Source: an uncultured Acidimicrobiia bacterium (GTDB lineage Bacteria > Actinomycetota > Acidimicrobiia > Spongiisociales > UBA4744). From it: a stretch of 64,000 nucleotides of DNA. Below are positions 10,965 through 40,405 of the stretch, in pieces. The position numbers were made by a program, and so were the translations under genes. Within the stretch, counting starts at the first letter, position 1. Each line of letters starts with the position of its first letter. Where the stretch lies: positions 5,697 through 69,696 of the forward strand of contig CAZQMF010000002.1 of assembly GCA_964594235.1 (NCBI GenBank), given 5' to 3'. The notes beneath the pieces were generated by a model. It searched no databases, was not told where the DNA came from, and saw only the letters and a list, made by a program, of their open reading frames with translations.

Positions 10965-11891
10965 TCAATCGCCGATCGGTGCGACCACCCTCAATCCGTG
11001 TGGCAGAGCGGAGAATCGCACCACTCCCGGACTACCGAGAGACTCGCCGTCCGCCTGGAGGGGTGACGGGGGATCCGACCACACTTCGACTTCGGGGACG
11101 TCTGGCCACACATCTACTCCCCCGATCGAGGAGAGATCCCGACCTGTCACCGCCGCGGCGAGGATCCGTGGCATGTTCGTGAACGAGAGACGCTCGATCA
11201 GAAGGACGGCCAGGCCTTCGTGTGGTGCCGTCGAAACCCTCAGACGGAGGCGTCCGAAATACGTATAGGGGTCGTGGATCTGAATCAACACCGCCGCGGC
11301 GTCCGCCGACCGCTCTCCCGCCTGGACTCGCATCGTTGGCGCTGGTCTGCCGTCGCGTGACAACACGACCGAGGCGGCCGACCGGGCGTAGTGGACACTG
11401 CCGAACCGATACTTGCGATATGGTTCCAGATTGGACAGACGGACGACCTCGGCGTCGAAGCCGAGACCCGTGGCGAATGTGGCGTACCGAACCGTCATGC
11501 TGTTCGCGGTCTCGACGGAGATCCGGGCGAGCGCCGTGCGAACGGCAGGCGGTTGAGATGCCAGGTAGGATGCCGCCTTCGCCGGCCTCGCCGGGATACC
11601 CAGGATGCGTGCAAGCACGTTCGTCGTGCCGGCCGGGATGATTCCGAGCGTCGTCTCCGTACCGACGATTCCGTTGACGACATGGTGGACGACCCCGTCG
11701 CCGCCCATTGCGACCACGATGTTGGTCCCCTCATGAGCCGCTTGCAGCGCCCGAGCCTCGACGCCGCCTGCACTCGTCGGCCATGCCGTCTCAACCTCGT
11801 AGGCGCGGGACAGACGTGCTACCACCGTACGGTGCAGGCCACCGGTGAAGCGAGAGGCGGCGGGATTCGCGATCAACAGCAGCGAACGCAT
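10965..11891 (-). CDS. Diacylglycerol kinase catalytic-domain lipid kinase (YegS/BmrU-like)
   Basis: It has LLIANPAASRF...NIVVAMGGDGVVHHVVNGIVG...LGIIPAGTTNVLAR, the DAGK_cat signature. It is convergent with the upstream gene, with the stops adjacent. Confidence 0.75.
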   Translation of the reverse strand: MRSLLLIANPAASRFTGGLHRTVVARLSRAYEVETAWPTSAGGVEARALQAAHEGTNIVVAMGGDGVVHHVVNGIVGTETTLGIIPAGTTNVLARILGIPARPAKAASYLASQPPAVRTALARISVETANSMTVRYATFATGLGFDAEVVRLSNLEPYRKYRFGSVHYARSAASVVLSRDGRPAPTMRVQAGERSADAAAVLIQIHDPYTYFGRLRLRVSTAPHEGLAVLLIERLSFTNMPRILAAAVTGRDLSSIGGVDVWPDVPEVEVWSDPPSPLQADGESLGSPGVVRFSALPHGLRVVAPIGD

Positions 11892-11949
11892 CCCGCAAGG
11901 CTACCGCTGGTCCTCAAGGATCGGATCACTCGCTCCGATACCTCCAGCT

Positions 11950-12906
11950 ATGAACGGTTCACGGCACGCCGCCACCTATGAAGCAGGCGGCGAGGGGGCG
12001 CTGCTCGGAGCGGCAGCCGGGGAGATGTTGGTGTCGGGCACCCGTCGGGCGTACGGGGCCACGGTGCAACAGATGGTGTTCACCGCCTACCACCTCCTCC
12101 GATCTCAACCTATCCAAGGGGAGGCCATCGCAACGCATCTGCTCGAATTCGCGTACCCGTCAGACGGGCGTGCGAGTGTCTATCGATCGCCGTCGCCGTG
12201 GCTCGCGGCGTACATCGACGAAGCGAAGCTGTCGCCGCCTACACCGATGCCGTTCTTGAACCCCGGTGCGGCGATCAGGGCCGTGCCGATAGGCGTCTGG
12301 TTCAGAAAGGAACCTCAGGCATTGATCGAAGGTGCTATCGAGGCGGTCCGCGCAACGCACACCCGGCCCGAGTCGTCGATTGTCGGAAGCGTCGTCGCGG
12401 GAATGGTCGCAGCGGCAGGCTATGGCCAGTCGGGCCGAGACCTGGTGAACGGCGCCATCGAGGTCGCTCAACGAGCCGAGAGGACGCTCGATGTGTCAAC
12501 GCCCATCCCAGCGATGCTCGATCGCACTACCGAGCTCATTGTGGGCAGCGCCAAGGACGTGTCCGTCGAGGTGCTGTCGTGGGGGGCGAACGACACCGAA
12601 GTCGAAGTCGTAGCGATGGTCGTAGCGCTCGCATCGCGGGCGTTCGAAGAAGCGTCGGTCGTGGTGCGAAACGCGGCAGGCGTCGTCTCGCATGCGGAAT
12701 GGGTCGCTCCACTCGTGGGAGCCGTGGTTGGTGCCCGGAGTGGACTCCACAAGTGGCCGTGGCCGCTTCCGAACGATCTCTGGTTCGCCGAGCTGGGTAG
12801 ACGCCTCGCCCGGCAGAATGCCGTGGTCGAGGATCTTCCCGATCCGTACGCGGTCGAGGAGGTGCTCAACTACGAGCTCGCCACGGACACTCTCGTAGAG
12901 AGGTAG
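11950..12906 (+). CDS. ADP-ribosylglycohydrolase-like protein (divergent; catalytic Asp positions appear substituted)
   Basis: It has an N-terminal G-rich block (AGGEGALLGAAAGEML) and a C-terminal block (WGANDTEVEVVAMVVALA...GAVVGARSG) resembling the two metal-binding motifs of ADPRH. The in-frame ATG at 11950 avoids overlap with the divergent kinase gene. Confidence 0.4.
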   Translation: MNGSRHAATYEAGGEGALLGAAAGEMLVSGTRRAYGATVQQMVFTAYHLLRSQPIQGEAIATHLLEFAYPSDGRASVYRSPSPWLAAYIDEAKLSPPTPMPFLNPGAAIRAVPIGVWFRKEPQALIEGAIEAVRATHTRPESSIVGSVVAGMVAAAGYGQSGRDLVNGAIEVAQRAERTLDVSTPIPAMLDRTTELIVGSAKDVSVEVLSWGANDTEVEVVAMVVALASRAFEEASVVVRNAAGVVSHAEWVAPLVGAVVGARSGLHKWPWPLPNDLWFAELGRRLARQNAVVEDLPDPYAVEEVLNYELATDTLVER

Positions 12907-15336: not shown

Positions 15337-16530
15337 TCAGCCGTTGAGGAACGCCGCCAGTCGGCGCATGCCCTCCTCGAGCTGGTCGTCGGCCAAGGCA
15401 TACGAAAACCTCGCGTATCCAGGTGCGCCGAATGCTTCGCCTGGAACGAATGCCACCAAGGCCTTCTCGAGGATGAGTTCGGCGAGTTCGGATGTGGACG
15501 TCGCGACCGATCCTCGAAGGGGTTTGTTCAGGAAAGCCTCCAGCGAGGGGAACGCATAGAACGCCCCGTGTGGCTCGGAGACTCGAACGCCTTCGATCTC
15601 GCTGAGCATTCGGTACATGGTTTGTCGTCGTCTGTCGAACGCCGCCCTCATCGACTCCACCGTCTCCATTCCGCCTCTCAGCGCGGTGAGAGCGGCGATC
15701 TGAGCGACGTTGTTGACGTTCGAAGTCGAGTGTGACTGGAGGTTCGATGCAGCCTTGATGACATCTGCTGGACCTACCATCCAGCCGACCCTCCATCCGG
15801 TCATTGCGTACGACTTGGCGACCCCGTTGACGATCACCGCACTGTTCCGCAGTTCGGGAACGATCCCCGGCATCGAGACGTACTCGGCGTCGCCGTACAC
15901 GAGGTACTCGTAGATGTCGTCGGTGAGCACCCAGACATTGCGTTCGACGGCCCACCGGCCGATCGCCTCCACTTCGTCTCGCGAGTAGACGGCACCACTC
16001 GGATTTGACGGCGACACGAACACGAGGAGCTTGGTGCGCGGCGTCCACGCCGCATCGAGTGCCTCGACAGATACTCGGAAGTCGTCCTCGACGCCGGCCT
16101 GCACCACGACCGGGACTCCGCCGGCCAATCGGATAGCCTCCGGGTAGGTGACCCAGTAGGGCGCGGGGAGAAGCACTTCGTCACCGATGTCGATGAGCGT
16201 TGCCATCGCCGCGAAGACTGCGTGTTTCCCGCCGTTGGTAACCAGCACCTGGCCGGCCCCGACCGTGAATCCGGCGTCGCGGGTGGTCTTCGCCGCAACC
16301 TCCTCTTTGAGCTCCGGTAGCCCTGACGCGGCCGAGTACTTGTGGTAGGTGGGATTCGCGCATGCTTCGGCTGCCGCAGCGACGATGTACGAAGGGGTCG
16401 CGAAGTCGGGCTCGCCTGCACCAAAGCCGATCACGTCGTGGCCGGCGACTCTCAACGCCCTCGCCTTCGCCGTCACGGCGAGCGTCGGCGACTCGGAAAT
16501 CGAGGCGATTCGTTGCGAGATCCTGGCCAT
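15337..16530 (-). CDS. Aspartate/aromatic aminotransferase, class I PLP-dependent
   Basis: It has GAGEPDF...LPELKEEV...NGGKHA...[10 protein letters not shown]...[10 protein letters not shown]...[16 protein letters not shown], the classical AspC family blocks. Confidence 0.85.
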
Positions 16531-16564
16531 GATCCATTAGGTTGGTCGACTCCGAGAGACCTTA

Positions 16565-17668
16565 GTGATCGTGGAATCGAAGATCAGCATCCCAGCCGGG
16601 CTTCTCCCAAAGGACGGCCGTTTCGGATCCGGGCCAACGAAGGTACGGACAGAGTGGCTCGATGCGCTGGCGTCGTGGCCGGCCGTCGGGACATCGCATC
16701 GTCAACAGCCGATCAAGGACGTCGTGCACCGGATCCGAGCCGGTCTCGTGGAACTGCTGACTGCCCCAGACGGCTACGAAGTCGCGCTGGGCAACGGTGG
16801 GGCGACCGCATTCTGGGACATGGCGGCGTTCGGGCTGATCGAACGACGTAGCCAGCACCTCTCCTTCGGGGCGTTCAGTTCACGGTTCGCATCGGTCGTC
16901 GCATCGACCCCACACCTCGAAGCTCCTGATGTGATCGAATCGGTCCCAGGAACGCACCCGATGCCACGAGCCTCCGAGGACATCGACGCGTACGCACTCA
17001 CGCACAACGAAACGTCGACCGGAGTCGCGATGGAACTCAACCGACCGGCACCCGGAATCGTCGTGGTCGACGGAACCTCGGCAGCCGGTGCACTTCGTTT
17101 CGATGCTGCCGCCGTCGACGTCTACTACTTCTCAACACAGAAGGCGTTTGGTGCAGATGGGGGGTTGTGGGTCGCGTTGCTCTCGCCGGCTGCCGTAGAG
17201 CGGATCGAGCAGATCGCGGCATCGGACAGACACATCCCCGCGTTCCTGAGCCTCAGCGATGCAGTTGTGAACTCGCGTCGAGATCAGACCCTCAACACAC
17301 CATCGCTCGTCACCCTGTTCCTCCTCGAACGGCAAATCGAATGGATTCTCTCCAACGGTGGAATGGAGTGGGCAGGGCGCCACTGTCGTGGCATGTCCTC
17401 GATGCTCTACGAATGGGCCGAGCAGCGCGACTACGCCTCGCCTTTTGTCGTGAATCCTGCGATGCGCTCTCCTGTCACGGTGACCATCGACCTGACCGTC
17501 GACGCGGCGGAAGTGTCGGCTGCACTCAGGGAGAACGGGATCGTCGATACCGAGTCGTATCGGAAGCTCGGCAGGAACCAGCTGCGAATCGGTGTATGGC
17601 CGTCGACCGACCGGGAGGACGTCCAGCGACTCATCGCCTGTGTCGACTATGTGGTCGAACGCCTCTGA
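16565..17668 (+). CDS. serC: Phosphoserine aminotransferase (actinobacterial SerC type)
   Basis: GTG start. It has FGSGPTKVR... and an aminotransferase class V fold (YYFSTQKAFGADGGLWVALLSPAAVERI). It is divergent from the aminotransferase above, with a 34-bp spacer. Confidence 0.75.
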   Translation: MIVESKISIPAGLLPKDGRFGSGPTKVRTEWLDALASWPAVGTSHRQQPIKDVVHRIRAGLVELLTAPDGYEVALGNGGATAFWDMAAFGLIERRSQHLSFGAFSSRFASVVASTPHLEAPDVIESVPGTHPMPRASEDIDAYALTHNETSTGVAMELNRPAPGIVVVDGTSAAGALRFDAAAVDVYYFSTQKAFGADGGLWVALLSPAAVERIEQIAASDRHIPAFLSLSDAVVNSRRDQTLNTPSLVTLFLLERQIEWILSNGGMEWAGRHCRGMSSMLYEWAEQRDYASPFVVNPAMRSPVTVTIDLTVDAAEVSAALRENGIVDTESYRKLGRNQLRIGVWPSTDREDVQRLIACVDYVVERL

Positions 17669-18330
17669 CCTAGATCGACGTCGATGAGCGTGTGTGCCGG
17701 GCGGTACACACGCCGGGCCAGCGGAGAAAGCATGTTGAGGGGATGCAAGACGGGAAGGACCGGGGTCGATCGGGCCAGCGCACGCTCGGCGATGCCGGCG
17801 ATGCGCGCCGTGGTCCAGACCCTGTCGCCGAATCTCGCAGCGGCGGGAACCAAGACCACGTCTGACGCCTCTGGTGGGCCGAGAAGGACGTTCGAATCGA
17901 GATAGCCCAACCCTCTCGCTACAGCGACCATGTCGGTCACGAGATCGTGCTCTCGTTCGGTCACGACGAGTTCCAGAACCGCAAGCGTCGAGTCTCCGAG
18001 CGACGGTACCCCGATCGACTGCCGTTCCGCCAACCGTGAGGCGAGGACCCGGATCCACCTCGTATCGTGGAGAGCACGGTCGACGGCTTCGAGACCGGAC
18101 AGGACCCGACCGATGTCCGGGTCAACGGCGGGATCTGTCACGGCGAGGAGGAGGGCGCTATCGGCACGCTCCTTGCGGAAGCGTTGAATCCGGGGGAGCG
18201 CGTTCGACCAGTCCGAGTCGGCGAGCGATCGAAGCGCCGACACAACGGCGACAGCCGAGGCGAGGGGGTCGGCCCACTCCCTGCGGAAGGCGTCCGCCAA
18301 AACATCCATCGGATCCTGCATCGTCGACAA
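17647..18330 (-). CDS. Hypothetical protein (227 aa)
   Basis: Long ORF with codon-biased composition and no recognisable motif. Its 3' end overlaps the serC end by about 20 nt. Confidence 0.4.
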   Translation of the reverse strand: MSTMQDPMDVLADAFRREWADPLASAVAVVSALRSLADSDWSNALPRIQRFRKERADSALLLAVTDPAVDPDIGRVLSGLEAVDRALHDTRWIRVLASRLAERQSIGVPSLGDSTLAVLELVVTEREHDLVTDMVAVARGLGYLDSNVLLGPPEASDVVLVPAAARFGDRVWTTARIAGIAERALARSTPVLPVLHPLNMLSPLARRVYRPAHTLIDVDLGQRRSTT

Positions 18331-20458: not shown

Positions 20459-21244
20459 TTACTTACCCGGAGGATACGTGACGGTATCGACGAGTGCACC
20501 CGATTCATCGTAGATCAGAGCGGTATCCCCGTCGTTGTCCCAGATTGGGCCGTTCTCGCACCAGAAGAGGTCTGTCGACGTATCCGTTCCACACCCGGAG
20601 TGGATCGTCACCCGGCCATCGAGAACGAAGCCGCTAGGGAAGTGAAACCGGTGGCTGCTGGAACCGTCTCGGAGTACCCATCCGGTGAGATCTGTGCTGG
20701 TGGTTGCGACGATGGTGACCGTTTCTGCGTTGAGAACGTTCTCATCGGGGCCGGACGGGTTTGCGGTGATCGAACCGATGGACACATCGCCTGTCGCGCG
20801 ACCGCACGCATCCTCCGCCCACATACCGATCCGGTGGTCCTGCGCCGTGGTCATCGCCGCGTTCAGCTCATCTTGGTGACGGGTGTTCGGAGGGTATGCC
20901 TGAGCGAGGGCGAACCCGCCGGCGACGAGGTCCAGGTTCACGGAACGTCCGTCGAGATACACGTAGGCGAGAGTTCTGCCGTAGCCGTCAACGACCTGTG
21001 CGTCGGTTTCGAGCGACACGGTCACTCCCTGAATGAGGCGGGCGAGTTCGTTGGTTGCCTGGGCGCCGAAGCACTCGTCGTGTTCCGGAGCGTTCACACC
21101 GATCAGCCGGACGCGCGACCCTCCCGCGTCGAACGTGTCGCCGTCGATGACACGGGTGACTCTCGCTTCCGAGAGGGGCGCCATCGGGGTGGAGGTGCAG
21201 GCAGAGGATGTGACGACGAGTAGGAGCAGCGCGAGCAATCTCAT
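20459..21244 (-). CDS. Secreted thermonuclease (SNase-like) fused to a lamin-tail (LTD) domain; lipoprotein-type signal
   Basis: It has MRLLALLLLVVTSSAC then VIDGDTFD...RLIGVNAPE...GRTLAYVYL...NLDLVAGGFA (staphylococcal-nuclease fold motifs). The C-terminal LTD-like beta domain reads VTIVATTSTDLTGWVLRDGSSSHRFHFPSGFVLDG...IYDESGALVDTVTY. Confidence 0.75.
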   Translation of the reverse strand: MRLLALLLLVVTSSACTSTPMAPLSEARVTRVIDGDTFDAGGSRVRLIGVNAPEHDECFGAQATNELARLIQGVTVSLETDAQVVDGYGRTLAYVYLDGRSVNLDLVAGGFALAQAYPPNTRHQDELNAAMTTAQDHRIGMWAEDACGRATGDVSIGSITANPSGPDENVLNAETVTIVATTSTDLTGWVLRDGSSSHRFHFPSGFVLDGRVTIHSGCGTDTSTDLFWCENGPIWDNDGDTALIYDESGALVDTVTYPPGK

Positions 21245-21256
21245 GACTGGGACCAT

Positions 21257-22042
21257 ATGGTGTCGGAGGGACAGTATCGTGTAGTTATGCAGATTCGTGG
21301 ATCGATTTCCTTCGAGGAGTCCGGCTCCGGGCCACTCGCGGTGTTCGTCCACGGCTATCCCCTGGACCATCGGTTGTGGCTCGACCAGCTCGAGGCCCTC
21401 TCGGACATCCGGCACTGCGTCGCTCCGGACCTTCCAGGGTTCGGCTCGTCTCAACCTCTCGGAATGTTCACCATGGAGACCGTTGCAGACTCGATCGCGG
21501 CCTTCGTCGGCAACGAGCAGGCCGATGTCGTTGCACTCTCGATGGGCGGCTATGTCGCGCTGGCCCTCTGGGAACGGCACCCCGAGGTCGTTCGATCGCT
21601 CGCGTTGCTGGACACGAAGGCGGGTGCGGACACGCCGGAGGCTCGAGAGGGCAGGAGCGCCCAGGCAGCGCAAGTCGCAGAGCAAGGCACCGGCTCGCTC
21701 GTCGAGGGGATGACACGTGCGCTTCTCGCACCACAGGCCGGCGGGGATGCGAAGAGGCGCTTGGCCGAGATGATCGAGGCAACGACGCCGCAAGCCGTCA
21801 TCGCCGCGCTCCAAGCGATGGCGGGCCGTCGCGACCGTACCGAAGTCCTGTCGACGATCGACGTGCCGGCCGCGGTGCTCGTCGGGGCACTCGATACGCT
21901 CACCCCGCCGACCGTTGCCGTCGAAATGGCCACGCGCATTCCCAACGCGACGGTCAGCGTCATACCAGGGGCGGGTCATCTCACGCCGATCGAGGCACCC
22001 GATGACGTGAGTGCTCTCCTTCGGCACTTTTTCGCTCGCTGA
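21257..22042 (+). CDS. Alpha/beta-fold hydrolase
   Basis: It has HGYPLDHRLW...PDLPGFGSS...the nucleophile elbow ALSMGGYVA...VIPGAGHL. The start is uncertain (21257 or 21287). Confidence 0.7.
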   Translation: MVSEGQYRVVMQIRGSISFEESGSGPLAVFVHGYPLDHRLWLDQLEALSDIRHCVAPDLPGFGSSQPLGMFTMETVADSIAAFVGNEQADVVALSMGGYVALALWERHPEVVRSLALLDTKAGADTPEAREGRSAQAAQVAEQGTGSLVEGMTRALLAPQAGGDAKRRLAEMIEATTPQAVIAALQAMAGRRDRTEVLSTIDVPAAVLVGALDTLTPPTVAVEMATRIPNATVSVIPGAGHLTPIEAPDDVSALLRHFFAR

Positions 22043-31340: not shown

Positions 31341-31772
31341 GTGATCCAGAGGAGGGTGTCACTGGACGAGACGGAAGCACTCCATCGACTCGTAGCGGCT
31401 CGGTCCGGCTATCTCGCCACCGCCGGTTCCGATGGCCGTCCGCACATTGTCCCGTTGGTCTTCGCCGTCGATGACCGCACGATCGTGTCGATGGTCGACG
31501 CAAAACCAAAACGGAGCACCGATCTGCGGCGCGTTCGCAACATCCGCGACAATCCGTCGGTGAGCGTGCTCGCCGACCACTACGAACCGGACTGGTCTCG
31601 GCTCTGGTGGGTGCGAGCCGACGGAACGGCGCACATCCTCGACTCGGGTTTCGAGCAGGTCGCAGGACTCCTCCGTGCGAAGTACCCGCAGTACGTCGAC
31701 ATCGACCTCGTCGGTCCGGCGATCATCATCGACATCGAGCGGGTTGCCGGGTGGGCGAGTTCCACCAGGTGA
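31341..31772 (+). CDS. PPOX-class (pyridoxamine 5'-phosphate oxidase-like) probable F420/FMN-dependent split-barrel protein
   Basis: It has LVAARSGYLATAGSDGRPHIVPLVFAVDDRTIV...NIRDNPSVSVLADHYEPDWSRLWWVRADGTA, the typical PPOX class F420-dependent family. The start is uncertain (GTG 31341, GTG 31356 or ATG 31269). Confidence 0.55.
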   Translation: MIQRRVSLDETEALHRLVAARSGYLATAGSDGRPHIVPLVFAVDDRTIVSMVDAKPKRSTDLRRVRNIRDNPSVSVLADHYEPDWSRLWWVRADGTAHILDSGFEQVAGLLRAKYPQYVDIDLVGPAIIIDIERVAGWASSTR

Positions 31773-31809
31773 ACGGGCTCCGTCCCAACCCCCTGGTACG
31801 CTCGCCGAA

Positions 31810-33483
31810 ATGACTGAGCAGCAGCCCGTCGGTCGGGTCATCGGCACCGAAGACGCCACGCCACTCGAGTTCTGGGTCGGCGTCGAGGAAGGCCAGTACC
31901 TCCAGTTGGACGACGTCGTCGCTCTCGAACGCACCCTGCCCGCAGGCGATGTGGTTCACATCTACGGGATGGTCGAACAGGTTCGTGCCCGTCACGAGGG
32001 TGCCAGGTTCGACTCGGACGTGTTCCTCATCGAAGACGGTGTCCTTCCTGCCGAGGTGAGCGAGGCGGCCAAGGTCGTCGCGACCCGGTTCGAACCCGAG
32101 ACGTTCGTGCCGCCCCGGCCCGGTCAGGCCGTCCGGCGAGCGGTCGGCGAGGATCGAGACAAAGCGTTGTTCTTCGATCAGATGGTCGAACGTATCCCCG
32201 TGGGTCTGTCGAGAGCCGGTGAACCCATGTTCGTCAACCTCGAGTTTCTCGACGGCACTCGTGGCGCCCACGTCAACATCTCCGGTGTGTCCGGTGTCGC
32301 CACCAAGACCACCTATGCGACATTCCTGCTGCACAGCCTGTTCACCTCAGGTGTGCTTGGCGCCAAAGCGGTGAACACCAAGGCGCTGATCTTCAACGTC
32401 AAAGGCGAAGATCTGTTGTATCTCGATCGCCCGAATCTGTCGCTCGATGCCGCCCAGCGCGACAAGTACGCGCCACTCGGGCTGCCCGCCGACCCGTTCC
32501 GCTCGGTCAGCATCTACGCCCCTCCGAAGCACGGGTCGAAGACCGGCGCCCCCGACGTCGCCTCCCGCCACGAGGGCGTCACGCCGTTCTTCTGGTCTCT
32601 CGCCGAGTTCTGCTCCGACGACCTGCTCCCGTTCTTGTTCGCCGGCGCCGAGGACGATCGGGCCCACTACTCGATGGTCGTGTACAACGTCATGGCCCAG
32701 CTCCACAAGGCGATCCGGCTCGACGACGGAGGTGTCGCCATCGACGGGCAAGAGATCCTCACCTTTCGCGATCTCGTCGACTTCATCACGACCAAGGTTC
32801 AGGACGAGGAGACTCGATACGAGTGGGCGGGTCCGGCGATCGGTGCCGGGACCGTCAACGCGTTCGTTCGGAGGCTCCACGGTGCGGTTCGCCATGTCGA
32901 GCACCTCATCAGAGGTGACCTGTCGAACGTCCACCCGATCGAACTCCAGAAGCAGATCACCGTCGTCGACATCCACAACCTCAACGACAGGGCAAAACGC
33001 TTCGTGGTCGGCGTCACGGTCCGGCGTGCCTTCGAGGACAAGGAACGCCAGGGGCACTCCGACGAGCTGCTGTTTTTGGTTCTCGACGAACTGAACAAGT
33101 ATGCGCCGAGGGAGGGGTATAGCCCGATCAAAGAGATCCTGCTCGACGTTGCCGAACGGGGACGGTCGCTGGGCGTGATCCTCATCGGCGCGCAGCAAAC
33201 GGCCTCTGAGGTCGAGCGGCGCATCATCGCCAACTCGGCGATCAGGGTGGTCGGCCGTCTCGACTCGGCGGAAGCGAGTCGAGAGGAGTACGGGTTCCTT
33301 CCCGGCGTCCAGCGGCAACGAGCCACCATCATGAAGCCCGGCACGATGCTCGTCTCGCAACCGGAACTGCCGATCCCGGTCACCGTCGAGTTTCCGTTCC
33401 CCGCGTGGGCGACTCGGGTCTCGGAGGCGGGCCCGGCACCCGGCGGCGGGAACGGCCCGGCCGATCCGTTCGACGGGCTGTAG
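31810..33483 (+). CDS. HerA-like / FtsK-like (DUF87) ATPase with an N-terminal HAS-barrel-like domain and a non-canonical P-loop
   Basis: It has an N-terminal barrel-like region (GRVIGTEDATPLEFWVGVEEGQYLQLDDVVAL), a P-loop-like GVSGVATKT (no GK[ST] dipeptide), Walker B (LLFLVLDELNKYAP) and a C-terminal SLGVILIGAQQTASEV (the TQ-motif region of HerA/VirB4-type ATPases). Confidence 0.65.
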   Translation: MTEQQPVGRVIGTEDATPLEFWVGVEEGQYLQLDDVVALERTLPAGDVVHIYGMVEQVRARHEGARFDSDVFLIEDGVLPAEVSEAAKVVATRFEPETFVPPRPGQAVRRAVGEDRDKALFFDQMVERIPVGLSRAGEPMFVNLEFLDGTRGAHVNISGVSGVATKTTYATFLLHSLFTSGVLGAKAVNTKALIFNVKGEDLLYLDRPNLSLDAAQRDKYAPLGLPADPFRSVSIYAPPKHGSKTGAPDVASRHEGVTPFFWSLAEFCSDDLLPFLFAGAEDDRAHYSMVVYNVMAQLHKAIRLDDGGVAIDGQEILTFRDLVDFITTKVQDEETRYEWAGPAIGAGTVNAFVRRLHGAVRHVEHLIRGDLSNVHPIELQKQITVVDIHNLNDRAKRFVVGVTVRRAFEDKERQGHSDELLFLVLDELNKYAPREGYSPIKEILLDVAERGRSLGVILIGAQQTASEVERRIIANSAIRVVGRLDSAEASREEYGFLPGVQRQRATIMKPGTMLVSQPELPIPVTVEFPFPAWATRVSEAGPAPGGGNGPADPFDGL

Positions 33484-33531
33484 GCCCACTCCAGACGACA
33501 TCGGTCCGGTGACGGTGACTACCGTCACGGT

Positions 33532-34635
33532 GTGGGTTCGGTGATCCTCATCGTTGCGTTCCTCGGATTCCCTGCGGTGGCCACGTGGGGAGCTCGCAGG
33601 TTCAAACCGCTCGAGTTTCTCGGACCGATCGTGCTCTGCTACCTGTTCGGAATCGCCCTCGGGAACATGTTCACCATCGATACCGATCTGGCGACGACGT
33701 TCACCGAGGCGACGGTCGTCCTCGCCATTCCACTCCTGTTGTTCACCACCGACTTCAGGGCGTGGCTCCGGATCGCCCGTCCGGCCGTCGTGTCCTTCGC
33801 GCTCGCCACGATCGCCGTCGTGATCACTTCGACGATCGCGACGTTGGTCCTGTCGGTCGCCCACGACTGGCAGATGGCCGGCATGACCGTCGGCGTCTAC
33901 ACGGGAGGCACGCCCAACATGAGCGCAGTCGGCATCGCGCTGGACGTACCGGACGAGACGTTCGTTCTCATGAATGGGGCCGACGTGATCCTCTCCGGCC
34001 TCTATCTCCTGTTCCTCCTGTCGATCGCTCAGCGGGTCCTTGGTCGGTTCCTTCCCGCATTCGACGTGTCCCGTTTCGGCGGCGACACCACGGAAGACGC
34101 GAAGGTCGCACCGAAGGTTCGGAACGTGGTTCTGGCCCTCGCAACCAGCATCGGCGCTTCCGCCGTCGCGGTCGGACTTGTCTACCTCTTCGCCCCCGAC
34201 CTGCCCATCGCTTTGGTGATCCTGTCCATCACGACGGTCGGGGTCCTCGCTTCGTTCGTGCCGAAGATCAGGACACTTCCCGGGACGTTCGAGACGGGCG
34301 AGTTTCTCCTCCTCATCTTCGCCGTTGCCATCGGCACACTCGCCAACGTGCGGCAACTCGCCGGGGCGTTCGGGGGAGTGTTCCTCTTCGTCGCCGTGGT
34401 GCTCATCGGGGCGATCGTGTTGCACTACGTGCTGGCTGCAATCTTCCGAATCGACACCGACACCGTCCTGATCACCTCGACCGCCGCCGTGTTCGGACCG
34501 GCGTTCGTGCCGACCGTGGCGGGAGCGTTGAAGAACCGAGCAATCATCGTGTCGGGGTTGACGACCGGGGTGGTCGGCTACGCGATCGGCAACTATGCCG
34601 GCATCGCGCTGGCCTATCTGCTCAAGCCTGGATAG
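33532..34635 (+). CDS. DUF819-like polytopic membrane protein
   Basis: 367 aa with about 10-12 hydrophobic helices. It has a two-fold internal repeat architecture with conserved Gly/Pro loops (VYTGGTPNMSAVG...; LITSTAAVFGPAF). Confidence 0.55.
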   Translation: MGSVILIVAFLGFPAVATWGARRFKPLEFLGPIVLCYLFGIALGNMFTIDTDLATTFTEATVVLAIPLLLFTTDFRAWLRIARPAVVSFALATIAVVITSTIATLVLSVAHDWQMAGMTVGVYTGGTPNMSAVGIALDVPDETFVLMNGADVILSGLYLLFLLSIAQRVLGRFLPAFDVSRFGGDTTEDAKVAPKVRNVVLALATSIGASAVAVGLVYLFAPDLPIALVILSITTVGVLASFVPKIRTLPGTFETGEFLLLIFAVAIGTLANVRQLAGAFGGVFLFVAVVLIGAIVLHYVLAAIFRIDTDTVLITSTAAVFGPAFVPTVAGALKNRAIIVSGLTTGVVGYAIGNYAGIALAYLLKPG

Positions 34636-35955
34636 CTACAGCGAGTACAAGCCGTCGAGGGTCTGAAGCACGATCTCGTGCAGGGTGCCGTCATCCGGCA
34701 GCGTTGTCATCATCCCGTACATCGCCGCCTGTCCGCTCGATGCCAGCTCGGGATGCGCTCGCACATCGTCGACGGCGCTCCGAAGATCGTCCAGGAACTC
34801 TTCCACGATCCCTGCGTGGGCAGGTGTCACCATGAAGTGGAGCGACGCCGGCTTGATCTGCCGGTCGACATGCCACCCGCGAGCCTCCAACGCGTCCCCG
34901 ACCGCGTAGGTGTCGACATCGACTCCCCGGAAAGCGAAGACGCTCAGTCTGGGGTCTCCGAGGATCTCCAAACCCTCCACCTTTCGGACTCCTTCGACAA
35001 GCCGCCGCGAGATGTCGAGGATCTGCTCGGTTATCGCCAGGTAGCCGTTCTGGCCGATCGCCTGCATAGCCGCCCACGCGGCCGCAATCGGCCCACCGGG
35101 GCGGGTGCCGGCCATCGACGGTGAGGCGTAGATTCCTCCCGGCCAGTCGCTGGTGACATGGAATTGAAACCTGCGGAGCTCAGGCGTTCGGTAGAGGATG
35201 GTGGATGCCCCTTTGGCCCCGAACCCGTACTTGTGAACATCAGCAGACATCGACGTCACACCGGACGCACGGAAGTCCCACACGCCGAGTGAGACTCCGA
35301 GTTGTTCAGCCCACGGAACGAGGAAGCCGCCCAGGCAGGCATCGACGTGCATCCCGATGTCATGCGCGGCGGCGATCGACGCCAGCTCCTCGATCGGGTC
35401 GACCTGACCGAACGGGTAGTCGGGAGCCGAGCCGACCATGAGGATCGTGTTCGGGGTGATGGCTGCCTCCATCGCCCCCAGGTCGGCCCTCAGGTCATCT
35501 GCCAGGGGGACCCGCACCTGTCGCACCCCGAAGTAGGCGGCAGCCTTGTCGAACGCTGCGTGCGCGGTCACAGGCAACACCATCTCTGGTTCCGAGTTCC
35601 CCTTGGTCGCCGCCGCCCAGTCTCTGTACGTCTTCACGGTCGCGAGCAGGCTCTCCGTGCCACCGGAGGTCATTGTGCCGGCGACCTGAGCGTCCCCGTT
35701 GAGCATCGTGGCGGTCATGCGAACCACCTCGGCCTCGAACCGACGCAACGCGGGAAACGCCATCGGGTTGAGTGCATTCTCGGAGAAGAACAGCCCGTGG
35801 GCGTCCTTCAGGAATGTCGTGTGGTCGTCGCCGGCGTGATAGACGAGACTCCACGTGCGACCGTCCTCCCAACTCGCTTCGGCCTCCGCGAGAGACTTCA
35901 TCTCGCTCAGGATCTGGTCGTGTGGTCTGCCGACAGGCGGGATCTGGGTGTCCAT
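34636..35955 (-). CDS. PLP-dependent decarboxylase (group II; glutamate decarboxylase / sphingosine-1-phosphate lyase-like)
   Basis: Start MDTQIPP. It has TSGGTESLL...HVDACLGGF...the PLP-Lys in SADVHKYGFGAKGAS. Confidence 0.8.
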   Translation of the reverse strand: MDTQIPPVGRPHDQILSEMKSLAEAEASWEDGRTWSLVYHAGDDHTTFLKDAHGLFFSENALNPMAFPALRRFEAEVVRMTATMLNGDAQVAGTMTSGGTESLLATVKTYRDWAAATKGNSEPEMVLPVTAHAAFDKAAAYFGVRQVRVPLADDLRADLGAMEAAITPNTILMVGSAPDYPFGQVDPIEELASIAAAHDIGMHVDACLGGFLVPWAEQLGVSLGVWDFRASGVTSMSADVHKYGFGAKGASTILYRTPELRRFQFHVTSDWPGGIYASPSMAGTRPGGPIAAAWAAMQAIGQNGYLAITEQILDISRRLVEGVRKVEGLEILGDPRLSVFAFRGVDVDTYAVGDALEARGWHVDRQIKPASLHFMVTPAHAGIVEEFLDDLRSAVDDVRAHPELASSGQAAMYGMMTTLPDDGTLHEIVLQTLDGLYSL

Positions 35956-36018
35956 GACCGCAGCGTAGCGACGACGGGTGACGCGGTTGCGTCCCTCGTC
36001 GTCGGTACCATCGGCGCG

Positions 36019-37158
36019 GTGAAGATCCTGCACACAGCCGACTGGCACGTCGGCCGTGCCATCCGCGGTCGAAGTCGGGCGGACGAACACCGGGCGGTTC
36101 TCGAGGAGATCGCATCGATCGGCGCCAGGGAGGCTGTCGATCTGATCGCCGTCGCCGGCGACATCTTCGACGTGGTCGCGCCGACCGCGGAGTCCGAACA
36201 GATCGTCTACCGGGCGCTACTGCGATTTGCCGACATTGCACCCGTCGTGATGGTCGCAGGCAACCACGACAATCCGCGGCGCCTCGACGCGGTAGCGCCC
36301 CTTCTCGAACTCGGCCGGGTGCATGTGGTCGCGACACCGATGAAGCCGGACGAAGGCGGTGTCGTGAAGATCGAAACCAGTTCCGGGGAGGTCGCAAGAG
36401 TGGCGATGCTGCCGTTCGTCACGCAACGCGGCATCGTCTCGGCGTCCGCGCTCATGGACCTCGAGGCGTACGAGCATGGGGCGCTGTATGCCGAGCGGCT
36501 CACTGCGATCCTCGCGATGCTCACTGAAGGGATCACGACGGACGATGTCAACATCGTTGTCGCCCACGTGATGGTCGCCGAGGGCGTCCTCGGTGGGGGA
36601 GAACGCAGCGCACACACGGTCTTCGACTACTGGGTGCCGGCGGGAGCGTTCGACGGCGCCCTCTCATACGTCGCCCTCGGGCATCTGCACCGGCCGCAGC
36701 AGACCCCCGCCGCGGCTCCTGTGTGGTACGCAGGGTCACCACTTCAGCTCGACTTTGGGGAAACCGAGGATGAGAAAGCCGTGCTCGTCGTGGATGTTCA
36801 ACCGGGACTGCCTGCCGCGGTCACTCAGGTGCCCCTCACGTCCGGGCGACGTTTGCAGCAGCTCCGAGGGAGCATCGAGTCGCTCGAACCCCTTGCCGGC
36901 ACAACCGGTGACGCGTACCTGAAGATCGTCCTCGAAGAGCCGGCGAGAGCGGGGCTCGCCGATCAGGTACGAGAACTGTTTCCCGAAGCCGTCGATGTCG
37001 TTCTCGCGGCACCCGAGGGTCGGCACCGCAGCACCCCTCGCGAAGCGCGATTGGGTCGTGTTCCGCACGAACTGTTCGTCGAGTACCTCGCCGAGGCCAA
37101 CGCTTCCGATGAGCGAGTCGTAGTGTTGTTCGACGAGCTCCTGGAGGAGGCTCAGTGA
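36019..37158 (+). CDS. sbcD: Nuclease SbcCD subunit D (Mre11-family calcineurin-like phosphoesterase)
   Basis: GTG start. It has ILHTADWHVG (motif I), AGDIFD (II), AGNHD (III), VAHVMV (IV) and LGHLH (V). Confidence 0.8.
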   Translation: MKILHTADWHVGRAIRGRSRADEHRAVLEEIASIGAREAVDLIAVAGDIFDVVAPTAESEQIVYRALLRFADIAPVVMVAGNHDNPRRLDAVAPLLELGRVHVVATPMKPDEGGVVKIETSSGEVARVAMLPFVTQRGIVSASALMDLEAYEHGALYAERLTAILAMLTEGITTDDVNIVVAHVMVAEGVLGGGERSAHTVFDYWVPAGAFDGALSYVALGHLHRPQQTPAAAPVWYAGSPLQLDFGETEDEKAVLVVDVQPGLPAAVTQVPLTSGRRLQQLRGSIESLEPLAGTTGDAYLKIVLEEPARAGLADQVRELFPEAVDVVLAAPEGRHRSTPREARLGRVPHELFVEYLAEANASDERVVVLFDELLEEAQ

Positions 37159-39506
37159 GGCCGGTCGAGCTCGAGATCGCGGGATTCACCGCATATCGGG
37201 ACGAGACAACGATCGACTTTCGAAACGCCGACCTGTTCGCCCTCACCGGTCCGACCGGATCAGGCAAGTCCAGCATCGTCGACGCGATCGTGTTCGCTCT
37301 CTACGGGTCCGTCCCGAGATATGGGGACCGGCGCGCCGTCGAGCCGGTCATCACGCTCGGCAAGAACGAAGCTCGCATCCAGTTCGACTTCACCGTCGGC
37401 GACGATGCGTACCGTGTTGCCAGGGTCGTCCGACGCACCAAGGGCGGGGGCGCGACCACCGCCGAAGCACGCCTCGAACATGGCCGTGTCACGCTCGCAT
37501 CCGGCGCAGACGAGGTCACCAAGAAGGTCGAGGAGCTTCTCGGACTTGCCTATGAGCACTTCATCAAGGCCGTCGTCCTTCCGCAGGGCGAGTTCGCTCG
37601 ATTCCTCCATGACAAACCTCGTGAGCGACAGGAGCTGCTGCGAGAGCTCCTGGACCTCCGCGTCTACCGGCGCATCCGGGATCTCGCCAATGAACGCAAG
37701 TCGGTTGCAGATCGACTGCTCGCAGGGCACCAACGCGAGGTCGATCTGCTTGCCGAGAGGGCCGGTGGTGATGAGGACGCCGCTTCCCGTCGTGTATCCG
37801 AACTCGAGCGGCTCCGCGACACCATCGCCAGGATCCGCACGCAGGTGGCATCGATCGACGAACAACTGAAGGATGCGACGAAGCAGATCGCCGACGAAGA
37901 GGCAGCTATGTCGGCCCTGGCCATCCGGTCTCCGGACGGTCTCGACGAGCTGGTGGGTCGGATTTCCGATGCAGACACCGCGGTCGACAAAGCCAAGTCC
38001 GCCATGGTGAAGGCGAGCGAGGCACTGAGCGCGCATGAGCAGTCGATCGCAGGGCTCCCGAACCCGGCGATACTCGAGTCTCAGATTGCGCAGCAACGAT
38101 CCCTCGAGGACCTCCTTGGTCGGCACGAGCGCGCGACCGAACAGCTTGCCAAGTCGGCCGCGGACATCGAACAGAAGCGCCGGACTGCCGGCGCGGTCGC
38201 ACAGGCACACTCGCAGACGGAGGAGGAACTCGAACGGCTCCGGCGCGCACACGCGGCGCACGAACTCGCTGCGAACGTCGTAGTCGGTGAGCCGTGCCCG
38301 GTGTGCGGAGTCCCCATCGCAGAGATCCCGAAGGTCGAACCGATCGCGGACGTGGAACGAGCCGTAGCCGACGTTGCTCGCCGAACAGCCGATCTCGATG
38401 CTGCACGAAGGGCCCTGACCGAAGCTGAACTCGCCGGTGAGCGATCGAGGGCTACTGCGGACGAGATCTCCGCTCAGATCGGCGCGCTTCGAGCCGGCCT
38501 CGATGGTGTCCCCGGTATCGACGAGCTGGCTCGAACCCTCGCTGCCACTGCGGCTGCACAGCAACGACTCGCCGAGCTGAAGGCAACTGCACTCACCTCA
38601 GCCAACGAGCTCCGCGCCGCCGAACAGCGTCGGGAAGCGCTCACCGAAGCGCGGGCCGAGGCGCTTGCCAAATTCCACGGCGCACGAGATCGCGTCGCTC
38701 ACCTGGAGCCACCACCGGTAGTGCCGGACGATCTTGCCATCGCATGGGCGGCATTGACCGAGTGGGCAGTCGCCCGCTCACAGGAGACGCACAAGCGGCT
38801 GGAAGGGCTCCGAGCCGACGCGAAGCAGCTCGTGGACGATAGATCCCGCCTCACCGAGGATCTCGACACGCACCTTGCCGGCATGGGCGCGGATCTCACG
38901 CCGGATGAGGCCGTGTTCTCGGCCCGCAAAGACCTCGAAGGCATACGGGAGGCGAAACAGCGAACCAAGGAACTCGCAGCAGACATCACCGCCGAGAAGG
39001 ACCGAAGTCACGTCGCCGCAGCACTCTCGCGACACCTGCACTCCAACCGGTTCGAGTCATGGATCCTCGAAGAGGCACTCATCGGACTGACCGTGGGTGC
39101 CAATCAGCTGCTCGACGAGCTGTCTTCTGGCATCTACTCGCTCGAGATCGACAAGGCGGGTTTCACCGTCATCGACCATCGCAACGCCGATCAGCGACGC
39201 TCCGTCCGCACGCTGTCAGGAGGCGAGACGTTCCTCGTGTCCCTTGCCTTGGCACTCTCACTCTCTGAGGAGCTCACCAGGATGTCATCGCAGGGGAAGC
39301 TGGAGTCGATCCTTCTCGACGAGGGATTCGGCACCCTCGATCAAGAGACCCTGGACGTGGTGGCCTCGGTTGTCCAGCAGCTCGGCGCCAAAGGACTCAC
39401 CGTTGGTCTCATCAGCCATGTGCCCGACCTCGCCGAGCAGGTACCGACCCGGTTCGTCGTCACCAAGGATGTCAGCGGGGCACACGTCGAACGGATCGAC
39501 GCATGA
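37155..39506 (+). CDS. sbcC: Nuclease SbcCD subunit C (Rad50/SMC-like ATPase)
   Basis: The GTG overlaps the sbcD stop (GTGA). It has N-terminal Walker A (LTGPTGSGKSS), a long coiled-coil, a CPVCG zinc hook (GEPCPVCGVP), and a C-terminal signature (LSGGETFLVSLALALSLS) with D-loop/Walker B (LLDEGFGTLD). Confidence 0.85.
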   Translation: MRPVELEIAGFTAYRDETTIDFRNADLFALTGPTGSGKSSIVDAIVFALYGSVPRYGDRRAVEPVITLGKNEARIQFDFTVGDDAYRVARVVRRTKGGGATTAEARLEHGRVTLASGADEVTKKVEELLGLAYEHFIKAVVLPQGEFARFLHDKPRERQELLRELLDLRVYRRIRDLANERKSVADRLLAGHQREVDLLAERAGGDEDAASRRVSELERLRDTIARIRTQVASIDEQLKDATKQIADEEAAMSALAIRSPDGLDELVGRISDADTAVDKAKSAMVKASEALSAHEQSIAGLPNPAILESQIAQQRSLEDLLGRHERATEQLAKSAADIEQKRRTAGAVAQAHSQTEEELERLRRAHAAHELAANVVVGEPCPVCGVPIAEIPKVEPIADVERAVADVARRTADLDAARRALTEAELAGERSRATADEISAQIGALRAGLDGVPGIDELARTLAATAAAQQRLAELKATALTSANELRAAEQRREALTEARAEALAKFHGARDRVAHLEPPPVVPDDLAIAWAALTEWAVARSQETHKRLEGLRADAKQLVDDRSRLTEDLDTHLAGMGADLTPDEAVFSARKDLEGIREAKQRTKELAADITAEKDRSHVAAALSRHLHSNRFESWILEEALIGLTVGANQLLDELSSGIYSLEIDKAGFTVIDHRNADQRRSVRTLSGGETFLVSLALALSLSEELTRMSSQGKLESILLDEGFGTLDQETLDVVASVVQQLGAKGLTVGLISHVPDLAEQVPTRFVVTKDVSGAHVERIDA

Positions 39507-40405
39507 AGTTCTCCGTCGAACCGTGGGCGCCGGAGTACGGCACCCCCATGTCGCCCGACTTGGAAGAGACCACCACCGTTCCGGATGTGGACGTCGAGGT
39601 CCCGGCGGGGAAGTGGCACCCGATCAGCCCGAGCGTCACACCCGCCTCGACGATTCTGTTCGTCGATGGAGTTCGCCGAATCGATGCGAACGTCTGGATC
39701 GGCGACGAACAGCCGGTACTCGGCATCTGCGCCACCTACGCCGCCGGGGCGGTCCGCTCAGACGGCGACGCGAAGCTCGTCGCTGCAGCGGTGCGGCGCG
39801 GGCTGTTCACCTCGTCGCCTCAAGCCGAAGCAGTCGATACTCGCCACGGACGGTACGAAGTTCGAGCGACAGCCGGTTCATCCACCGAGGACCTGTGGCT
39901 GGGGCTTCAGCAGCGGATGGGCGAACTGGAGCACGAGATCTCCTCCGAACATCTCGACGTCGAACTCGTCATCACCGATGGGCCGTTGAGGACGGGCCGG
40001 GAGCCGGGTGTCGTGGGCTACGTCAAGACACACCACGTGCAGTACCTCCCTCCTGCCCTGAACGGCGTGCTCGCCGCGCTGCGCCCCGGCGATCGAACGC
40101 CCCTGTTTCTGATGACCACGGCGTGGAGTCGCTACTCGTGGTACCTGCGGCTGCCAGGAGGCGGTAGCGGTCCTTTCGCGGGGGTGGTCCGGTGTGAGGC
40201 GTCGGCCGACCAGGATGTCGCGTCTGCACGAGCGCTCGCCGACCGCGTCGCCGCAACGCTGCCCCGGTTTGCCTCCGAACGCCACAAGGATCCGCGTGCC
40301 CCGCAGAACCTCTACCCGATCGGGGGCCTGGAGCGGGAGTTGCGCCGGAGGCTCGGAGACCAGCATCTGCTGTACCGGGCATTGCTGGTGGCGGCGGGCG
40401 CCTAG
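39503..40405 (+). CDS. Hypothetical protein translationally coupled to sbcC; tentatively a NurA-like (RNase H-fold) nuclease
   Basis: The ATG overlaps the sbcC stop (ATGA). It has an ordered D...E...D...H pattern reminiscent of NurA catalytic motifs: ILFVDGVRRID (D55), GELEHEISSE (E143/145), VELVITDGPL (D160) and YVKTHHVQYL. It has no other recognisable domain. Confidence 0.35.
   Translation: MKFSVEPWAPEYGTPMSPDLEETTTVPDVDVEVPAGKWHPISPSVTPASTILFVDGVRRIDANVWIGDEQPVLGICATYAAGAVRSDGDAKLVAAAVRRGLFTSSPQAEAVDTRHGRYEVRATAGSSTEDLWLGLQQRMGELEHEISSEHLDVELVITDGPLRTGREPGVVGYVKTHHVQYLPPALNGVLAALRPGDRTPLFLMTTAWSRYSWYLRLPGGGSGPFAGVVRCEASADQDVASARALADRVAATLPRFASERHKDPRAPQNLYPIGGLERELRRRLGDQHLLYRALLVAAGA

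Follow-up and report, generated by a model that had tools for sequence, protein, structure and literature searches.

Introduction

In Sulfolobus and Pyrococcus, the genes for the ATPase HerA, the Mre11 and Rad50 proteins and the nuclease NurA form an operon, listed in the order herA-mre11-rad50-nurA (PMC4351679), whose products are presumed to act in 5′-3′ resection of DNA ends. A bacterial NurA-HerA pair is known from Deinococcus radiodurans (DR0836/DR0837, here DrNurA and DrHerA; structures 7F6D, 7WRW and 7WRX). The pair is stated to occur in few bacteria (PMC9960219), and published figures put bacterial HerA and NurA under 20-27% identical to their archaeal counterparts. The connection of the bacterial pair with SbcCD has been left open (PMC4663267), and a nurA-hepA-sbcD-sbcC cluster has been noted in Oceanithermus profundus (PMC5448004). 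Here we analyse a herA gene, its partners and its promoter in a stretch of 64,000 nucleotides (nt) from an uncultured Acidimicrobiia bacterium (contig CAZQMF010000002.1; the whole stretch is called the window).

A preliminary description of the window, made from the sequence alone, presented the gene as an orphan HerA-like ATPase with a deviant P-loop. Our analysis makes it probable that the gene encodes an active bacterial HerA, that it was split from a conserved four-gene module, and that both halves of the module carry a near-identical promoter-like motif, which we infer to be a damage promoter of the RecA-NDp/PafBC type.

Results

Identity of the herA product

The open frame around herA extends from 31675 to 33483 on the forward strand. 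Initiation at ATG 31810 yields 557 amino acids (aa), the length of the 90-95% identical homologues retrieved by database search, and is further backed by a promoter-like motif ending 7 nt upstream (Table 1). The same search returned thousands of homologues, and the strength of the homology excludes a chance open reading frame (ORF).

Comparison with solved structures settled the identity of the ATPase after family libraries had failed. With phmmer, the window protein matched DrHerA (7f6d_B, 7wrw, 7wrx) over its full length (E=4e-153), the alignment spanning residues 5-543 of the window protein and residues 13-604 of the DrHerA chain; a profile built from nine relatives gave E=5e-176. The N-terminus aligned without gaps to the HAS-barrel region of DrHerA. 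We could also read in the translation the HerA-type architecture that had been proposed, namely the N-terminal barrel, the Walker B motif LVLDEL (aa 423-428) and the C-terminal AQQ motif (GAQQTASEV, starting at aa 460). Judged by this full-length similarity, the window protein is an orthologue of D. radiodurans HerA along its whole length.

Pfam, NCBIfam and PADLOC left the ATPase unclassified. The check with hidden Markov models for HerA/DUF87 that had been suggested gave a mixed outcome: the HAS-barrel (PF09378, residues 7-62) scored below threshold (E=3.6e-4, 21 bits against a 25.2-bit cut-off) and HerA models matched weakly at the C-terminus, while the archaeal-type Pfam model DUF87 gave no match at E≤0.01. 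Among solved structures no archaeal HerA chain appeared at E≤1, even with the profile. Kinship with archaeal HerA, thus, rests on the shared architecture as described in PMC9960219.

The P-loop, GVSGVATKT (aa 159-167), indeed lacks the GK[ST] dipeptide, as had been described. We found, however, that it is not degenerate. The P-loop of DrHerA in the phmmer alignment, ISGISGVATKTSYA, is the same non-canonical sequence, and re-alignment with DrHerA revealed no hidden canonical GKT. Counting along the alignment, K175 and T176 of DrHerA (the K-T of GVATKT) correspond to K166 and T167 of the window protein. In DrHerA, K175 pairs with the β-phosphate of ADP and T176 coordinates the metal (Mg), and mutation of K175 or of D487/E488 abolishes both ATPase activity and resection (PMC9960219).

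We fetched 80 related loci, out of at least 561 candidate stretches encoding a relative, from a one-genome-per-species collection. The sequence NISG[IV]SG[VI]ATKT[ST][YF] was present in all 80. Family representatives were clustered at 50% identity, the most distant being about 34% identical to the query; 527 were found at E≤1e-30, and 104 of the 150 listed fitted the pattern G-x-[ST]-G-[VI]-A-[TS]-K-T. With a looser pattern we recovered three more variants (GVAAKT twice and GVATKT). No P-loop found among the 150 listed representatives contained GK[ST], most of the others being fragments that lack the region. We conclude that GxSGVATKT is the normal Walker A motif of the bacterial HerA family; being invariant across the family, it is a hallmark of bacterial HerA rather than a sign of decay, and by analogy with DrHerA we regard the window P-loop as a functional Walker A. 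Its non-canonical sequence is probably why generic P-loop and DUF87 models miss HerA.

The remaining catalytic residues are kept as well. The Walker B residues D426/E427 and the acidic pair E200/D201 after β-2 are invariant in the alignment and across the loci, and R434 and R491, which by counting along the same alignment correspond to the translocation-related arginines R495 and R552 of DrHerA, are conserved in both; FNVKGEDLL is conserved in HerA relatives. Compared with close relatives that share the same split arrangement, the ratio of nonsynonymous to synonymous substitution rates (dN/dS) of herA was 0.04-0.11, showing that the gene is under strong purifying selection.

We saw no second herA in the window. 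Another ORF of 557 aa (6021-7694) was considered as a herA paralogue and rejected, since its product is a dynamin-family GTPase. It stands in tandem with a second such gene (7396-9228; Pfam Dynamin_N), the two forming a bacterial dynamin-like pair; the equal length is a coincidence and the protein is unrelated to HerA.

The four-gene module in the window and in relatives

All four genes, herA, sbcD, sbcC and nurA, are present in the window (Table 1). The gene that had been called NurA-like passed the Pfam NurA cut-off (22.8 bits against 21), and its product matched DrNurA (7f6d_H, E=3.6e-23) and Thermotoga TM1739 (E=1.9e-9) among solved structures. Its D55 corresponds to the catalytic D53 of DrNurA, K175 to K201, and the arginine within HKDPRAPQNL to R309, all of them conserved in relatives; W8, whose counterpart adjoins the unwinding pin in DrNurA, is kept too. 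These are residues that were mutated in the DrNurA study. The DGP motif is likewise conserved, and a dN/dS of 0.06-0.14 against split-lineage relatives indicates purifying selection. The 300-aa gene that closes the sbcDC operon can on these matches be assigned as bacterial NurA.

SbcD, whose GTG start is conserved in relatives, gave its best matches to the bacterial SbcD structures 7dog, 4lty and 6s6v (E about 1e-22). SbcC matched E. coli SbcC (E=7e-42) and contains a CPVC zinc-hook motif, as read in translation. The closest structures for the two proteins are E. coli SbcCD and Thermotoga Mre11/Rad50; archaeal proteins were not the best matches.

In the window, herA is separated from sbcD by 2.5 kb that includes a gene on the opposite strand, so that the four genes do not form a contiguous co-directional unit, and no nurA adjoins herA. 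ORFs and Pfam agree with the neighbours named in the preliminary description, a DUF819 membrane protein and a divergent decarboxylase. Its notion of a split herA-mre11-rad50-nurA set also stands: the four genes are identified, and in relatives they form a contiguous operon. Indeed, sbcD comes directly after herA in 62 of the 72 loci containing the two genes, with a median gap of 26 base pairs (bp), and in every one of the 56 loci with all four genes the order is herA-sbcD-sbcC-nurA on one strand, which answers the call for an analysis of neighbourhood conservation. The sbcD-sbcC-nurA part is a single unit in nearly all loci. Beside the operon we found no fifth conserved gene in the related loci, the synteny being lineage-limited. 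The order in relatives is the one listed for the archaeal operon. The Sulfolobus genes, in work by Constantinesco from 2004, are reportedly arranged as in that listing.

The metagenome-assembled genomes (MAGs) with related loci are labelled Acidimicrobiia, Nitriliruptoria, other Actinomycetota, Dehalococcoidia, Gemmatimonadota and Bacteroidota. For three contigs with 70-72% HerA identity (L036, L040 and L058), the MAG labels are Gammaproteobacteria, Myxococcales and Acidobacteriota. Since these could reflect mis-binning or recent transfer, MAG taxon labels are to be taken with caution. Plasmids also encode the module. A Streptomyces plasmid carries the same herA-sbcD-sbcC-nurA cluster, and cyanobacterial and Chloroflexota plasmids carry nurA-herA-sbcD-sbcC. 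The matches to the window HerA comprised six plasmid records, in five of which the match extended over 80% or more of the protein, and three distant phage records (at most 29% identical). Nothing in the searches of phage and plasmid collections pointed to a mobile or viral origin for the window locus. The four genes are, thus, one conserved module in most relatives, and herA is not ancestrally an orphan.

As a separate observation, the plasmid four-gene clusters of Streptomyces (L085, 1-6313) and Candidatus Chlorohelix (L087, 2844-4835) adjoin genes for ImmA/IrrE-family metallopeptidases. The Streptomyces cluster also adjoins TIGR02678, TIGR02680 and DUF2397 genes, which we take to be a Wadjet-type gene set. 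These neighbours hint at damage-responsive regulation or at a defence-island context.

Insertion at the herA/sbcD junction

The DUF819 gene is confined to relatives with at least 84% HerA identity and is absent from the other 80 loci, and the distribution of the decarboxylase gene matches it. The flanks (GSDH and Rce1-like genes upstream, gpsA and ychF downstream) are common to the window and to genomes free of the insert. Other members of the subclade have unrelated genes at the same herA/sbcD junction. These encode a DsrE-like protein, an FAD oxidoreductase, a DsbA-like thioredoxin, mannosyl-3-phosphoglycerate synthase, a disulfide reductase, a luciferase-like oxidoreductase, or an AlkZ-like glycosylase with a phosphatase and a kinase. 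The variety of unrelated inserts at one junction shows that it was opened repeatedly. The orphan state of the window herA is, therefore, true only of its present position: herA is separated from its partners in the window, and this is a derived state produced by insertion of the DUF819 and decarboxylase genes, not an independent locus.

Because the decarboxylase gene lies on the opposite strand, herA transcription is uncoupled from sbcD. The 48-nt spacer between herA and DUF819 has a predicted folding energy of -15.9 kcal/mol and contains a hairpin (Table 1) that begins 26 nt past the herA stop, ends 4 nt ahead of the DUF819 start and has no U-tract. This hairpin may be a terminator, marking the end of the transcript, or a regulatory hairpin.

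Three other loci show particular arrangements. In L091 (10756-13212; 78% HerA identity), the junction holds an AlkZ-like gene, a low-molecular-weight phosphatase gene and a fructosamine-kinase-like gene. AlkZ is a family of interstrand-crosslink DNA glycosylases, and here a second DNA-repair gene landed inside the module. In an Acidimicrobiia MAG (L006; herA at 6225-7880, 78% identity), the separation is more extreme than in the window: sbcD, sbcC and nurA were all missing from the 10 kb downstream and the 6 kb upstream of herA. In L001, an assembly of the same organism with no other differences, gene calling breaks sbcC into two ORFs (375 and 401 aa; 15347-17697) and omits DUF819 (11723-12802), whereas tblastn finds both DUF819 and sbcC at 100% identity; the broken calls probably are assembly frameshifts and not biology.

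A shared promoter-like motif

When we aligned the sequences preceding sbcD in split loci, a shared motif emerged just 5′ of the start codon. Most Actinomycetota-type loci have the same motif, with the consensus TGTCaCacCCCnnngnTACgcT, ahead of herA. Its form, NGTCN-N11-TAnnnT, has the geometry of the actinobacterial RecA-independent damage promoter (RecA-NDp/P1), for which PMC5656591 gives the consensus tTGTCRgtg-8nt-TAnnnT. PafBC activates promoters of this type (PMC5656591, PMC6789036 and PMC8223512). In the review passage of PMC8223512 that lists members of the PafBC regulon, herA, sbcDC and nurA are not named, and the text of PMC5656591 does not mention sbcC or sbcD.

We compared motif counts with those expected from the frequency of the motif in the same loci. 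Within 100 nt upstream of herA, the relaxed motif occurred in 48 of 76 loci (0.33 expected) and the strict motif in 30 of 76 (0.16 expected). Upstream of herA in the six loci whose MAGs are labelled Dehalococcoidia, Gemmatimonadota/Longimicrobiales or Bacteroidota, the motif was missing. The distance from the end of the -10 element to an in-frame start codon was 6-8 nt in 41 of 58 cases, which is the geometry of a leaderless transcript. A second motif, before sbcD, was found in none of the 39 loci in which the genes abut, in 14 of the 23 with a spacer of 40-300 bp, and in 13 of the 15 split loci.

In the window, near-identical motifs precede herA and sbcD, and an inverted copy precedes the decarboxylase gene (Table 1). 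The 63-bp divergent spacer between decarboxylase and sbcD contains an inverted repeat with 20-nt arms (35965-35984 and 35989-36008; 85% complementary), a 44-nt near-palindrome (35965-36008) that represents two back-to-back copies of the motif. The inverted copy suggests that the inserted decarboxylase gene, too, may have a damage-type promoter of leaderless geometry. The whole window contains seven relaxed motifs, of which four sit 6-7 nt ahead of a start codon that opens an ORF of 80 aa or more; the number expected from shuffles is 0.11. From this rarity and placement we conclude that the motif is not a general housekeeping promoter.

A generic promoter scan found no sigma-70-like promoter, and terminator-like sites were at chance level. 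We searched for the LexA SOS box TCGAAC-N4-GTTCGA, allowing up to three mismatches, and found none with one mismatch or fewer near herA or sbcD; the overall excess of LexA-like sites is due to the TCGA-rich composition. By analogy with the mycobacterial promoters, we infer that the herA and sbcD motifs are LexA-independent damage promoters of the RecA-NDp/PafBC type that give leaderless mRNAs. If so, the split halves would still be co-induced in trans.

The only further motif of leaderless geometry in the window lies on the reverse strand (21244-21273; TGTCC-N11-TATGGT), 7 nt before ATG 21244. The gene that follows encodes 261 aa with a lipoprotein-like N-terminus (MRLLALLLLVVTSSAC); by eye it looks to be of the staphylococcal-nuclease type, and it may be another damage-regulated nuclease.

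Table 1. The herA-nurA region of the window: genes, hairpin and promoter-like motifs
Feature	Position	Strand	Evidence or context
Motif before herA, CGTCCC-aaccccctgg-TACGCT-cgccgaa-ATG	31781..31802	+	7 nt before ATG
herA, bacterial-type HerA, predicted hexameric DNA translocase/ATPase (557 aa)	31810..33483	+	Full-length match to DrHerA
Hairpin, perfect 8-bp stem and 4-nt loop (GTGACGGT gact ACCGTCAC)	33509..33528	+	Between herA stop and DUF819 start
DUF819 membrane protein (inserted cargo, outside the repair module)	33532..34635	+	Pfam DUF819, E=1.9e-38
Pyridoxal-phosphate-dependent decarboxylase (inserted cargo)	34636..35955	-	Pfam Pyridoxal_deC, E=3e-17
Inverted motif copy, CGTCAC-N10-TACGCT	35962..35983	-	6 nt before decarboxylase ATG
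Motif before sbcD, CGTCCC-tcgtcgtcgg-TACCAT-cggcgcg-GTG	35990..36011	+	7 nt before GTG
sbcD, Mre11-type nuclease, bacterial type (379 aa)	36019..37158	+	Pfam Metallophos; GTG start
sbcC, Rad50-type ABC ATPase (783 aa)	37155..39506	+	Pfam AAA_23, SMC_N, SbcC_Walker_B; 4-bp overlap with sbcD
nurA, bacterial-type nuclease (300 aa)	39503..40405	+	Pfam NurA, DrNurA match; 4-bp overlap with sbcC

Discussion

The proposed action of the module draws on Deinococcus and archaeal work for HerA-NurA, and on mycobacterial work for induction by PafBC. A HerA hexamer would dock a NurA dimer on its HAS-barrel face, and a broken DNA end would be threaded through the hexamer pore. HerA may then feed the duplex to NurA, which would unwind it and cut the 5′ strand and so provide RecA with a 3′ tail. 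SbcD-SbcC (36019-39506) would recognize and open blocked or hairpinned ends. As to the split, an internal damage promoter may have arisen before sbcD in one Acidimicrobiia subclade. With this second promoter in place, later insertions at the junction would no longer have broken co-regulation, and the apparently orphan herA of the window would be the outcome.

A wider proposal, which in our judgement falls a little short of an even bet, is that herA-sbcD-sbcC-nurA of Actinomycetota, regulated differently in several other phyla, is a dedicated machine for end resection at double-strand breaks. It would be LexA-independent, controlled by PafBC through RecA-NDp-type promoters and translated from leaderless transcripts, with SbcCD working physically with HerA-NurA in the manner of archaeal Mre11-Rad50, and its fission would have proceeded via the second promoter.

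Several observations weigh against the reading of the locus as a damage-controlled HerA-NurA-SbcCD module. The motifs before herA and sbcD in the window begin with CGTCC and not TGTCR, GTC, the 11-nt spacing and TAnnnT being kept, and we found no PafBC/WYL-like protein among the ORFs scanned in the window. The acids of DrHerA that contact DrNurA, D78, E80 and D81, correspond to D70, F72 and L73 in the window protein, which keeps the first acid only and has an E75/D76 pair three residues later. With two of the three contact acids changed, the HerA-NurA interface may differ; the same residues are found in relatives with a contiguous operon, and the changes are, thus, uninformative about the split. 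Deletion of nurA or herA in D. radiodurans and Thermus led to modest or even improved damage resistance (PMC9960219). As the Deinococcus deletions do not sensitize cells, the role of bacterial NurA-HerA is disputed. For cooperation of SbcCD with bacterial HerA-NurA, finally, the evidence is gene linkage.

The alternative that survives best, and that we still find improbable, is that after the split HerA became independent of NurA and SbcCD, for instance teaming with RecJ or a different protein, or serving to pump DNA during segregation or transfer, so that the linkage would be purely historical. Uncoupling of herA from sbcD-sbcC-nurA by the opposite-strand gene, the isolated herA of L006, the published interaction of DrHerA with RecJ (PMC4663267) and the two changed NurA-contact residues would all fit it. 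However, the changed residues are identical in contiguous-operon relatives, nurA is retained under purifying selection alongside herA, and both split units carry the same promoter motif.

The preliminary description had offered a defence system as an alternative. Distinctly less probable is such a role in defence against phages or plasmids, whether as a HerA-SIR2 or HerA-DUF4297 system or as a RecBCD-like destroyer of foreign linear DNA. The C-terminal ATPase part does match PADLOC HerA/mad8 models weakly (E=3e-9 to 7e-3), as well as the structures 8xau, 9c1m, 8yho and 8ziq (E about 1e-3 to 1e-2); the plasmid clusters lie beside ImmA/IrrE genes and, in Streptomyces, TIGR02678/TIGR02680/DUF2397 genes; and genome protection has been speculated for archaeal HerA-NurA (PMC3326311). 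Against this, no SIR2, DUF4297 or other effector gene adjoins herA in the window, and the NCBIfam model HerA_antiphage_2 scored 14.9 bits where 850 are required. The locus lies on the chromosome, in a setting of conserved housekeeping synteny, its conserved partners are SbcD, SbcC and NurA, and its promoter appears to be of the DNA-damage type. The mobile-element matches amount to the six plasmid and three phage records mentioned above, the phage ones distant. A family-wide role against foreign DNA beyond the window locus is conceivable.

The suggestion that the protein might be a degenerate or purely regulatory paralogue, whose P-loop supports no ATP hydrolysis, is very unlikely. It drew on the absence of GK[ST], and could appeal to the failure of the Pfam and NCBIfam P-loop ATPase models and to the low ATPase activity of DrHerA with Mg (PMC9960219). 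Yet the P-loop is invariant family-wide and in DrHerA its Lys and Thr bind nucleotide and metal, mutation of the Lys abolishing ATPase activity; the other catalytic motifs are intact, dN/dS is about 0.05, and no second herA was seen in the window. That the protein is instead a VirB4/TraG/FtsK/TdtA-like ATPase of conjugation or DNA transfer can practically be dismissed: it belongs to the same fold class (the ASCE FtsK-HerA superfamily) and matches FtsK-like ATPases weakly over about 70 C-terminal residues (NCBIfam EssC, E=0.004; YukB 9qks, E=0.9), but no VirB4, TraG, TrwB or FtsK match rose above noise in Pfam, NCBIfam or the PDB, the best match is full-length HerA (E=1e-153 to 1e-176), and no conjugation genes lie nearby.

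We, thus, favour an active HerA whose gene was split from the four-gene module. The components and the likely mechanism of this module are already known, and the new points are modest extensions. In the literature searched we found no description of how widely the herA-sbcD-sbcC-nurA operon is spread among bacterial phyla, of a RecA-NDp-type promoter on the Actinomycetota herA operon, or of a link between a duplicated promoter and operon fission. The almost invariable operon linkage in the 80 loci provides genomic-context evidence for a connection of SbcCD with NurA-HerA, and from the conserved RecA-NDp-like promoter one would predict membership of the module in the LexA-independent damage regulon of Actinomycetota. 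A second promoter first and insertions afterwards would make a clean natural example of operon break-up without loss of co-regulation. Public records call members of the HerA family "ATP-binding protein" or "hypothetical protein", and recognizing HerA and NurA corrects many annotations.

Among known systems, NurA-HerA of D. radiodurans has the same layout of HAS-barrel, RecA-like domain and inserted helical bundle. HerA shares with DrHerA the GxSGVATKT Walker A, the Walker B DE and the arginines, and NurA is of the same bacterial type as DrNurA, with an N-terminal Trp and pin region and the catalytic Asp. The window differs in that nurA comes after sbcC and herA lies 6 kb upstream of nurA, in that the NurA-contact residues E80 and D81 of DrHerA are not kept, and in the length of NurA (300 aa against 349 aa in DrNurA). 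With the archaeal operon the module has in common the four functions and, presumably, their use in end resection, whereas it differs in its bacterial-type proteins, its non-canonical Walker A and, in the window, the split cluster. Oceanithermus likewise links a bacterial HerA to SbcD and SbcC, in the layout seen on the cyanobacterial and Chloroflexota plasmids; there, however, nurA stands before herA, while it is last in the Actinomycetota-type cluster. The anti-phage HerA proteins (SIR2-HerA and DUF4297-HerA; 8xau, 9c1m and 8ziq) resemble the window protein in the HerA-superfamily ATPase core, with weak C-terminal alignment, but it has no effector partner and no significant full-length similarity to them, and it falls short of the curated defence models. 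The motif resembles the RecA-NDp/P1 promoters of the PafBC regulon in Mycobacterium and Streptomyces in its TGTCR-N11-TAnnnT geometry, its non-palindromic form and its place before DNA-repair genes, and in this comparison it was limited to Actinomycetota-type loci.

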